In this document: positions 15,896 to 62,355 of the stretch, piece by piece | How the letters are laid out: every line of letters starts with the position of its first letter | Position numbering within the stretch: the first letter of the stretch is position 1 | Assembly: GCA_963674695.2 (NCBI GenBank) | Contig: CAXXGI010000001.1 | Coordinates: 896,001-960,000, forward strand | Origin: a bacterium | Lineage (GTDB): Bacteria > UBA10199 > 2-02-FULL-44-16 > JAAZCA01 | Direction of reading: 5' to 3' | DNA length: 64,000 nt | Translations under genes and position numbers: made by a program | Notes under the pieces: model-generated | What the model saw: only the letters and a program-made list of their open reading frames with translations | Databases searched by the model: none | What the model was told of the DNA's origin: nothing

Positions 15896-16040
15896 CGATG
15901 TCATCCCGAGTGACCCGGAGCGAACAGCGTGAGTCGAAGGGGAGTCGAGGGATCTCATGGGATCCCTCCACGCGCTCATTTCATTCACTTGGTCGGGATG
16001 ACAAGCATATGCCCAGCTCATTCACTTGGTCGGGATGACA
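15896..16040. repeat. Left 145-bp direct repeat containing a REP-like doublet
   Basis: Near-identical to 16549-16693; GTCATCCCGAG...GGGATCTC / GATCCC...CGGGATGAC. Confidence 0.9.
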
Positions 16041-16113
16041 AGCATATGCCCAGCTCATTCACTTGGTCGGGATGACAAGCGTATGCCCAGCTCATTCACT
16101 TGGTCGGGATGAC
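15981..16113. repeat. 37-bp tandem repeat, about 3.6 units
   Basis: TCATTCACTTGGTCGGGATGAC at 15981, 16018, 16055 and 16092, with linker AAGC(A/G)TATGCCCAGC. Confidence 0.92.
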
Positions 16114-16168
16114 ATGATGGCTTGTCATCCCGAGCGAAGCCCAAAGGGCGAAGTCGAGGGATCTCTTG

Positions 16169-20223: not shown

Positions 20224-20317
20224 TGTCGCCACTGTAACGAAAAGAGGCCCTGCTCACAACAGAAACCATTTGAAGTCCATCCAAACGATCCCACAGTTGT
20301 GCTTCCCCAAAAAACCC

Positions 20318-20587
20318 TCTACATAATGTCTGTTGGAAAAGGGGGTTTTGTCGTCATTCCCGCGAAGGCGGGAATCTCGAAGCACTTGTAAATCGAGATT
20401 CCCGCCTTCGCGGGAATGACAAAAAACGGTGAAACCAGCATTTCCCGACAGACTCTACATAGTGCCTGTTGGGAAAAGGGTTTTGTCGTCATTCCCGCGA
20501 AGGCGGGAATCTCGAAGCACTTGTAAATCGAGATTCCCGCCTTCGCGGGAATGACAAAAAACGGCACTCCCCGACAGGTTCTACATA
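20318..20587. repeat. Two tandem ~135-bp units, each carrying an identical REP doublet (20353-20420, 20488-20555)
   Basis: GTCATTCCCGCGAAGGCGGGAATCTCGA...TCGAGATTCCCGCCTTCGCGGGAATGAC twice; units bounded by TCTACATA. Confidence 0.92.
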
Positions 20588-27974: not shown

Positions 27975-28028
27975 AAGGAGCCAAAAGAAACGGGGAAGGC
28001 AATTGCCTTCCCCGTTTCTTTTGGCTCC
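27975..28028 (-). terminator. Long hairpin downstream of and overlapping the tRNA 3' end
   Basis: GGAGCCAAAAGAAACGGG..CCCGTTTCTTTTGGCTCC inverted repeat. Confidence 0.6.
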
Positions 28029-28417
28029 GGTGGCCAGACTCGAACTGGCGACCCGCTGATTACATGTGTTCCACTCGTTTCCGAGCGGCATGGACTATCT
28101 CATCACCATATCCACATTCGGACTGTAGGTGGCGGGCGCTTGTGGGGGATTATTCTTTCGTCACCCCCTAGTCTCTGCACCTTCCCCCCGCCTTTGACAT
28201 CGGGAGGCTTGGCTCAGGGTTACCCGCCGCTTCGCGGAAATCCAAATCTCAAATGACTAAATCCTCAATGAAACATTCGGATCCAGGATTTGGAATTTAG
28301 GATTTCCCGACGAAGTCGGGGAGGGATTCCCTGAATTCACCCGCTTTTCACCCTGCCGTTTCCGACAGGGGCTGCCTTGTGACAGTCAGCTGCTCTAACC
28401 AACTGAGCTACACCGGA
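28022..28417 (-). tRNA. tRNA-Asn(GTT), intron-containing; exons 28417-28382 and 28062-28022
   Basis: Spliced sequence TCCGGTGTAGCTCAGTTGGTTAGAGCAGCTGACTGT^TAATCAGCGGGTCGCCAGTTCGAGTCTGGCCACCGGAGCCA (77 nt) forms a complete cloverleaf with G73 and encoded CCA. Confidence 0.93.
28063..28381 (-). ncRNA. Group I intron (319 nt, no ORF) in the tRNA-Asn anticodon
   Basis: 5' exon ends in U paired to G in P1 (CUGU/GCAG); terminal G; P2 with GAAA loop; P3 GCGGGUG/CGCCCGC; core motifs GAAUUCAGGGAA, AACCCUGAGCCAAG, GGUGCAGAGACUA, GAGAUAGUCCA; P9 with GAAA loop. Confidence 0.9.
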
Positions 28418-28466
28418 ATATTACACCTTTCAAAGAGCGCGAAAAATCGCGCATGCCTAACACCAA

Positions 28467-46857: not shown

Positions 46858-47793
46858 ATGATCCACGTCGAACACCTGCACAAGCACTTCGGACCGGTTC
46901 AGGCCGTGAGCGATGTCTCCTTCGATGTCGCCAAAGGTGAGGTCGTGGGCCTTCTGGGCCCCAACGGCGCGGGCAAGACGACCACGATGCGCGTCATCAC
47001 CGGCTTCCTGCGCTCCAGCGCGGGGCTGGTCACCGTGGATGGCATTCCGGTCTCGCCCGAAGAGATTCGCACGCGTCGGCTCATCGGCTATCTCCCTGAA
47101 AATGCACCCCTGCCGACCGATCTGGAGGTCACGGGGTTTCTCGACTACATCGCGCACCTGCGGGGCATCGCCACGACGGCCATCCCTGGCGCGATCGACG
47201 AGATGATCGACACCTGCGGCCTGGCCACGGTGGTGGGTCGCCCGATCGGCCAGCTCTCGAAGGGATATCGGCAGCGCGTGGGACTCGCCGCGGCGCTGCT
47301 CCACCGGCCGCCGATCCTCATCCTCGATGAACCGACCTCCGGCCTCGACCCGAATCAGATCACCGAGATCCGCACGCTGATTCGAGCCATCGGACAGGAG
47401 CGGACGGTCGTGCTCTCCACGCACATCCTGCAGGAGGTCGAAGCGACCTGCTCGCGCGCGCTGATCATCAGCAGCGGAAAACTCGTCGGCCACGGCACGC
47501 TCTCAGAACTGATGCGCGCATCCGGCGGGCACGCGCGCTATACCGTCGCCCTGCGCGCCGCGCGCGAGGTGATTCGCACGGCACTCGAAGCGCTGCCCCA
47601 TCTGGAGATCGCCGAATGGCTCTCGGGACCAACCGATGAACGCCAGCGCTTTACCCTGGCGGGACAGGATCCCGAGGATCGCTCCGAGGAGATCTTTGGC
47701 TGGGCCGTGGCGCAAAATTTAACGCTCGCGGAACTGACCCACGAGACGGCCTCGCTCGAAGAGGTTTTTCGGGAGTTGACGCAAACCCCGTGA
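46858..47793 (+). CDS. ABC ATPase (GldA-like)
   Basis: GPNGAGKTT, LSKGYRQRVG, LDEPTSGLDPNQI. Confidence 0.9.
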   Translation: MIHVEHLHKHFGPVQAVSDVSFDVAKGEVVGLLGPNGAGKTTTMRVITGFLRSSAGLVTVDGIPVSPEEIRTRRLIGYLPENAPLPTDLEVTGFLDYIAHLRGIATTAIPGAIDEMIDTCGLATVVGRPIGQLSKGYRQRVGLAAALLHRPPILILDEPTSGLDPNQITEIRTLIRAIGQERTVVLSTHILQEVEATCSRALIISSGKLVGHGTLSELMRASGGHARYTVALRAAREVIRTALEALPHLEIAEWLSGPTDERQRFTLAGQDPEDRSEEIFGWAVAQNLTLAELTHETASLEEVFRELTQTP

Positions 47794-47866
47794 ACGGTAA
47801 ACCGTGAACGGTGAACAGAAAATCGTTCACGGTTCACCGTTCACCGTTTACGGTTAACGGTTCACG
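47789..47866. repeat. Inverted heptamer array (4 x SGTRAAC, then 6 x GTTHACS)
   Basis: Read directly from sequence. Confidence 0.85.
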
Positions 47867-62260: not shown

Positions 62261-62355
62261 CGAGTCACGAGTAACGAGTAACGAGTAACGAGTCACGAGT
62301 CACGAGTAACGAGTAACGAGTAACGAGTAACGAGTAACGAGTAACGGGTAACGAG
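62261..62355. repeat. Heptamer tandem array CGAGT(A/C)A x13
   Basis: Counted directly (one unit is CGGGTAA); two imperfect inverted units at 62231-62244. Confidence 0.92.

Follow-up and report, generated by a model that had tools for sequence, protein, structure and literature searches.

A predicted group I intron in the only evident tRNA-Asn(GUU) gene of a bacterial genome, and its repeat-built P5 arm

From the analysis of a 64,000-nt stretch of bacterial DNA (hereafter the window) we conclude with high confidence that the only tRNA-Asn(GUU) of this genome would be made from a 396-nt precursor, in which a 319-nt group I ribozyme is predicted between U35 and U36. A first-pass annotation of the same DNA had proposed a group I intron splitting tRNA-Asn(GUU) between positions 35 and 36, and at the level of sequence both this observation and the identification were confirmed. 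Below, we describe the gene and its intron, weigh other readings of the locus, and consider a large P5 arm that sets this copy apart from its relatives.

Architecture of the split gene and its intron

The pre-tRNA-Asn(GUU) runs from 28417 to 28022 on the minus strand (the letters quoted in the first-pass annotation are the reverse complement), and the limits that had been given for the precursor (28022..28417) and for the intron (28063-28381) proved exact. The parts of the gene and the hairpin behind it are as follows.

28382..28417, minus strand: 5' exon of tRNA-Asn(GUU), 36 nt, tRNA positions 1-35; acceptor and D arms, anticodon stem and loop as far as U35, ending in ...CUGACUGU
28063..28381, minus strand: group I intron, 319 nt, ORF-less, with omega-G at 28063
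28022..28062, minus strand: 3' exon of tRNA-Asn, 41 nt, U36 to A76, starting with UAAUCAGC; T arm, acceptor strand, G73 and an encoded CCA
27981..28021, minus strand: perfect palindromic hairpin of 18 bp, immediately 3' of the CCA; core rich in G+C, 3' arm rich in T

When 28063..28381 was removed in silico, ARAGORN called a tRNA-Asn(GTT) of 77 bases on the spliced sequence, the very product that had been expected from intron removal. In an alignment of 30 precursors the acceptor, D, anticodon and T stems paired in 100% of the cells, in the case of the anticodon stem by construction. An intronless counterpart is present in a genome of the same family, G002. Over its 36 nt the 5' exon matches the first half of that gene at 100% identity (G002:C35:366-401; query 1-36) and the 3' exon is 97% identical to its 3' half (G002:C35:327-365; query 356-394); the two halves are contiguous, and the uninterrupted G002 gene (L020) is named tRNA-Asn(GTT) by ARAGORN. 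The discriminator base G73, a mark of tRNA-Asn identity, was found in 30/30 aligned tRNA-Asn genes.

Judged by its sequence, the palindrome directly downstream of the gene is likely a transcription terminator. It was not among the features listed by a simple scan and was read directly off the sequence. In run X2, one contig reverses upon itself at this site, which is probably an assembly effect of the palindrome. A promoter scan returned no sigma-70 promoter upstream of the tRNA-Asn gene.

The Rfam group I intron model (RF00028) matched the locus with 71.4 bits against a gathering score of 50 (E 4e-16; 28432..28071, minus strand), over the full model (1-253 of 253), so that the covariance-model check proposed in the first-pass annotation came out in its favor. 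Within the 64 kb of the window no other Rfam family passed its gathering score, and the match at this locus was the only one to RF00028 in the whole genome. The helix map was taken from the Rfam alignment, a thermodynamic fold and direct reading of the window sequence, and contains the following elements.

28372..28385, minus strand: P1; CUGUC (CUGU from the exon, C as intron base 1) pairs with GGCAG, the internal guide
28351..28370, minus strand: P2 hairpin, 8 bp, GAAA loop; both-side changes in 8/8 pairs
28225..28311 (approximate limits), minus strand: P5 extension private to the window copy, ~80-95 extra nt; AAATCCN heptamer words, then their inverted complement
28092..28175, minus strand: 3' part of the catalytic core, with P7, the hairpin between P7 and P3', P3' and P8
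28175..28169 (5' strand) and 28097..28092 (3' strand), minus strand: P7, 6 bp, in a pseudoknot with P3; presumed guanosine-binding helix
28168..28144, minus strand: hairpin between P7 and P3', 5-bp stem, with the 15-nt conserved loop UGACGAAAGAAUAAU; called P7.1-like in the first-pass annotation
28138..28132, minus strand: P3'
28131..28104, minus strand: P8
28071..28088, minus strand: P9 hairpin, 7 bp, GAAA loop; the next 8 nt run to omega-G; both-side changes in 6/7 pairs

In addition, the intron has a P3 of 7 bp, a P4 of 6 bp and a P5 of 3 bp plus its extension, and P6 and P6a are present. Every mapped helix pairs in the window copy, and the fold of the precursor (-167.2 kcal/mol, z -5.85) recovers P1-P6, P8 and P9. 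The 5' splice site is marked by a wobble pair between U35 (28382) and a G at 28375, and this U.G pair occurs in 30/30 aligned introns. The intron-final G is likewise present in 30/30 rows, where it was required by the filter; in the 13 unfiltered rows a G lies directly before the TAA of the 3' exon in all cases, at the same junctions. A P10 pairing of the 3' exon with the guide was not apparent on reading the sequence.

To the MAFFT alignment of 30 precursors the window copy contributed one row, relatives found by BLAST twelve and named public genomes 17, with four long ORF-bearing introns excluded. Across these 30 same-site introns, standard pairs filled 93.1% of 2343 cells, compared to 74.4% in shuffles and 36-45% with slid partners, a comparison in which the structure is favored over the slid controls by having been derived from the window sequence and in which the rows are related to each other. 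Both-side (compensatory) changes were seen in 57/81 pairs and none of the 500 shuffles attained any of the five measures, where the covariation is partly circular in that the anticodon stem, U-1 and omega-G were demanded by the filter, and the guide GCAGC was preset for 17 rows by the search pattern CTGT...GCAGC. Besides P2 and P9, such changes affected 4/7 pairs of P3, 5/6 of P4, 2/3 of P5, 8/9 of P6/P6a, 3/4 of P8 and 5/5 of the hairpin after P7. All six pairs of P7 were formed in 30/30 rows; five are invariant and the sixth is changed on both sides in 2 rows. The stem of the hairpin after P7 thus covaries while its 15-nt loop is nearly fixed, the loop being found in 17 loci (the window and 16 others), which suggests that it may serve as a tertiary contact or a binding site. 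In copies of the CPR type, two small hairpins stand in place of this single hairpin.

The elements that the first-pass annotation had listed (P2, P3, the P4/P6/P7 core, the P7.1-like hairpin, P8 and P9) are therefore all present and supported by covariation, and the U.G splice pair and terminal G it had pointed out were borne out as well. It had also described the intron as free of an ORF, and this too held: on the intron's own (minus) strand, the frames that overlap it reach 39 aa at most and those confined to it 27 aa at most. An antisense frame of 124 aa gave no Pfam match.

Identity, supply and predicted splicing of the tRNA

The interrupted gene is the only evident source of tRNA-Asn in this cell. 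The 3.03-Mb genome is rated 100% complete, and default ARAGORN found 43 tRNAs for 19 amino acids in it, with Thr(GGU) among them and none for Asn. Lowering the ARAGORN threshold brought up one further 'Asn' candidate (C1:243300-243380), which we rejected as a second tRNA-Asn in view of its poor cloverleaf, its mismatched stems and its lack of a T-loop consensus. The search for another, intron-less tRNA-Asn, which had been recommended in the first-pass annotation, thus yielded no credible one at either setting. With the genome 100% complete and no other credible tRNA-Asn in it, the intron would have to be removed accurately.

Routine annotation handles the gene badly, in line with the earlier expectation that tRNA callers may miss or miscall it. 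Default ARAGORN reported 0 tRNAs in the 64-kb window, and with the intron option it named the gene at this locus tRNA-Thr(GGU), with a 319-nt intron and the boundary one base off. The same intron mode gave 29 calls in the genome, and the one at 28417..28022 was the only call that coincided with a group I match. Detection of introns of this kind lay outside the design of tRNAscan-SE 2.0, as its authors state.

The ARAGORN name corresponds to an alternative reading in which the gene is a tRNA-Thr(GGU) and the intron is shifted 5' by one base, to the site between 34 and 35. The ambiguity is a formal one and general to the class: when U35 is moved into the intron and omega-G into the exon, GUU always turns into GGU, and many homologues are also named Thr by ARAGORN. 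At the Thr boundary, however, the base before the 5' splice site would be G and the intron would end in U, against the U.G/omega-G rule, which holds at the Asn boundary in 30/30 homologues. Moreover, a normal tRNA-Thr(GGU) is already present in the genome while tRNA-Asn is otherwise missing, and ARAGORN itself gives the name tRNA-Asn(GTT) to the intronless G002 gene, with which the exons share 97-100% identity. Since the splice-site signature, the existing Thr(GGU) without any other Asn, the exon identity with G002 and the conserved G73 all point the same way, we consider the Asn identity settled and the Thr reading extremely improbable.

Both splicing and its independence of protein are inferred here from established group I chemistry, according to which the reaction would proceed as follows. 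The 5' exon end CUGU would pair with the internal guide and form P1 with its U35.G wobble, whereupon a free guanosine held in P7 would attack after U35. The last base of the intron (G 28063) would subsequently take the same P7 pocket, and the freed 3'-OH of U35 would attack after this G, so that U35 and U36 would be joined and the GUU anticodon restored. The repeat hairpin of P5 is peripheral in this scheme and should leave the core undisturbed. Three contigs covering the locus contained no spliced joint, and these contigs are uninformative on expression; at the DNA level, the locus with its whole intron, P5 arm included, was found without differences in the contigs of two samples from one study (the second being X3).

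We considered whether the intron might instead be a dead relic, disabled perhaps by the insertion in P5, which would make the gene a tRNA-Asn pseudogene and leave Asn codons to be read otherwise. Such a reading can draw on splicing being predicted from sequence and on the ~80-95-nt P5 insert being unique to the window copy, but the insert lies distal to P5 and has an identical sequence in the second sample, and all helices still pair. The 65 invariant columns of the alignment are all kept in the window copy (by definition), and 51 of these lie in the exons, the P1 guide or the catalytic core. Together with a complete genome that offers no substitute for tRNA-Asn, this makes a relic very unlikely in our view. 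A less radical departure would be a true group I intron that is not purely autocatalytic, in that it needs help from a protein of the chaperone or maturase-like kind, or has its splicing modulated by the P5 repeat hairpin. The conserved 15-nt loop could be a protein site just as well as a tertiary contact, the large P5 hairpin could slow folding, and P10 is not evident. Against this, nothing in the data indicates a specific factor, the intron has no ORF, and self-splicing in vitro is the general behavior of small group I introns from bacterial tRNA genes; a dependence on a helper or on the arm seems to us unlikely. We thus retain the reading of a functional ribozyme that would splice by itself the precursor of the cell's tRNA-Asn.

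The P5 arm and the heptamer repeats of the genome

The most distinctive part of the window copy is the extension of P5. BLAST matches of the relatives end at query positions 97-106 and resume at 194, the gaps in the alignment agree with these limits, and the insert is missing from all 16 related copies, in which P5 is simple. By itself, the insert folds into a long hairpin (-52.2 kcal/mol, z -5.6).

The words from which the arm is built are found elsewhere in the same genome. Tandem repeats with a period of 7 account for 348 TRF rows, far above periods 4 or 5; ten of the period-7 rows have units within one mismatch of the AAATCCN words, eight of them exactly, and several sites of the AAATCCN type fold as similar palindromes. 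An AAATC array followed by a GATTT array within 160 nt occurs at 5 distinct loci in the genome, the intron included, whereas the reverse order and five control word pairs occur at 0 loci each; these are counts of word clusters under relaxed settings with controls, and a stricter count missed the intron locus. Similar words are also present in a spacer of a class-level relative. We looked for the insert as a discrete mobile element and rejected this possibility: BLAST against the own genome gave word-level matches only, with a best E of 0.043. For this reason, we describe the arm as repeat-built rather than as a copy of a defined element.

Compared with the dispersed heptamer repeats, the arm shares the AAATCCN words and their inverted complement, with arrays elsewhere in the same genome, but its repeat block sits in a ribozyme that is itself part of an essential tRNA gene, and not in a gene spacer. 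A tentative explanation, to which we give a little less than an even chance, is that the arm is a repeat palindrome of the AAATCC type that spread at the DNA level into a terminal loop of the ribozyme, where it would be tolerated or might even tune the rate of folding or splicing. If true, a selfish repeat would here have settled in a second selfish element within an essential gene, as an instance of such nesting in nature, and structured RNA genes would be open to invasion by repeat arrays at any place that their structure permits.

Other tandem repeats were noted in the window. Two heptamer arrays, which exemplify the period-7 repeats found throughout the genome, lie at 47790-47866 (GTGAACG x3.9, directly followed by the inverted complement GTTCACG x6) and at 62261-62355 (CGAGTAA x13.6). 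Longer units are repeated at 15981-16114 (37 nt, x3.6, 98% match) and at 20317-20564 (135 nt, x1.8, 95% match), the latter with an inverted repeat of its own.

Related introns, their distribution and significance

A same-site intron was found in 16 of 60 relatives, namely in 4/12 of the same family, 4/9 of the same order and 8/39 of the same class, and an uninterrupted tRNA-Asn in at least four genomes of the same family (G002, G005, G008 and G009). Identity to the window intron by BLAST was 85-88% within the family and 68-81% beyond it. A maximum-likelihood tree, which includes the short exons and may therefore favor host relationships, placed the window copy with four family copies and two copies of the same order (89/93 support). 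Since identity falls with kinship and the tree groups the copies in this manner, the intron appears to have been inherited vertically within the family, with losses. Elsewhere in the intron tree the copy of G052 (L019) pairs with that of an Omnitrophota MAG (L153; 100/99) and a 'delta proteobacterium' MAG with a Nitrospira MAG (L114, L132; 100/97), pairings which hint at lateral transfer or at mislabelled bins. One further genome of the same family, G012, holds two split tRNA-Asn copies on different contigs (C96:10478-10793 and C86:179-494); it is rated 5% contaminated, and the double copy could reflect duplication, strain mixing or contamination.

Among public genomes, taken as one per species, at least 17 strictly verified split tRNA-Asn genes were present among the 118 stretches listed; these stretches also contain many ordinary tRNAs and serve as examples and not as a frequency, and the strict test for a split gene kept the 17. 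A profile of the intron family matched beyond the 5' exon in ~37 of the 118 stretches listed. Going by record titles, 10 of the 17 verified cases among the matches listed belong to Patescibacteria/CPR groups, and the other 7 among these matches to a Nitrospira sp., Planctomycetia, Omnitrophota, Elusimicrobia, a 'delta proteobacterium', Gammaproteobacteria and one further bacterium. The view in the first-pass annotation that Asn 35/36 introns were reported mainly in Patescibacteria fits this sample. Its suggestion that a deltaproteobacterial-like genome would extend the host range did not hold up, given the same-site introns in 16 of the 60 relatives and in named MAGs of several other phyla: the intron is common in this bacterial class and occurs in many phyla, and is not rare. 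As for the host itself, its RpoB is 82% identical to that of G001 of the same family and 57-66% identical to those of nine named genomes (Citrifermentans 66%, two 'Deltaproteobacteria' MAGs 65-66%, a 'delta proteobacterium' MAG 65%, Methylomirabilota 65%, Binatia 62% (partial), Nitrospira 60%, Elusimicrobia 57% and Desulfocapsa 57%), values that are too even for a placement.

Four class-level relatives carry a longer form of the intron at the same tRNA-Asn site. These copies measure 536-554 nt and hold an open stretch of 119-147 aa with an HNH-like pattern of cysteines and histidines, which starts 1-5 nt 3' of the 5' splice site.

L007:1736-2092, minus strand of the locus: HNH-like reading frame
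L012:868-1245, minus strand of the locus: HNH-like reading frame
L014:1633-2073, minus strand of the locus: HNH-like reading frame
L015:1680-2087, minus strand of the locus: HNH-like reading frame

One of the four frames passed the Pfam HNH cut-off (23.2 bits against 21.4). At the place of the HNH frame, the copy in G035 (L011) has an insertion of ~60 nt, which looks like a remnant of such a frame. Thus, in comparison with mobile group I introns that carry an HNH homing endonuclease, the same intron at the same site is armed in four relatives, whereas the window copy, with no frame above 39 aa on its own strand, does not count as one that encodes an endonuclease. As there is no nuclease gene in the intron, the window copy would not be mobile by itself.

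Introns of the same sequence family were also observed in other tRNA genes of relatives, with core matches to the window intron of 72-87% identity; under their ARAGORN names these genes are tRNA-Leu(UAA) (L018 in G005 and L021 in G033), tRNA-Lys(CUU) (L022 in G045) and tRNA-Leu(CAA) (L028 in G031). In the two tRNA-Leu(UAA) introns the core is shared at 76-87% identity over matched stretches of 51-109 nt. The conserved hairpin after P7 recurs in the Lys(CUU) copy, which suggests that the intron family may have moved between tRNA genes.

With the other same-site tRNA-Asn introns (16 in relatives and at least 17 named) the window intron shares the gene, the insertion point, the U-1/omega-G signature and the core, and all of these align; the private P5 hairpin of ~80-95 nt and the absent nuclease ORF are features of the window copy. 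With the introns of tRNA-Leu(UAA), initiator Met, Ile(CAU) and Arg(CCU) it has in common that they are small, ORF-less ribozymes of the anticodon loop, whose bases contribute to a short P1, and often sit in the sole gene for that tRNA. It differs from these classical introns in the tRNA and in the position within the loop, and also in its covarying hairpin between P7 and P3', which to our knowledge the IC3 archetypes lack. Both L2 and L9 of the window intron are GAAA loops.

In the literature, the classical four settings are named Leu.3Ug, fMet.2Ug, Ile2.5Ug and Arg.5Ug and assigned to subgroup IC3 in the accessible part of Williams 2020 (bioRxiv 10.1101/2020.01.27.920355), which raises the number of tRNA settings of bacterial group I introns from 4 to 21. 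Under that nomenclature, the window intron would be 'Asn.4Ug', as it lies between the 4th and 5th bases of the anticodon loop, with a U before it and a g at its end. Our literature search found no paper describing a group I intron in a bacterial tRNA-Asn, and 'Asn' does not occur in the accessible running text of Williams 2020. Other studies mention short 'introns' in cyanobacterial tRNAs for Arg, Gly and Lys, with Asn not among them (PMC5733544), group I introns in some tRNAs of the genomes concerned (PMC8172020) and Leu(TAA) introns in Burkholderia (PMC2686568); in PMC8155191 the term turns up among the references only.

What is known about group I introns stays unchanged by these results; what is particular to the window copy is that it sits in the sole tRNA-Asn gene and has a repeat-built P5 arm. 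For annotation, the consequence is that the genome would seem to be without a tRNA-Asn, since default callers miss or misname a gene that is present and essential. For the evolution of such introns, the survey illustrates how, within one bacterial class, the same intron has been retained in places, lost in others and sometimes equipped with an HNH gene. The locus also adds a documented case in which the whole supply of one tRNA would depend on a ribozyme, and in its repeat-built P5 arm nature offers a modest test of how large a peripheral insertion can be tolerated by a minimal group I ribozyme.
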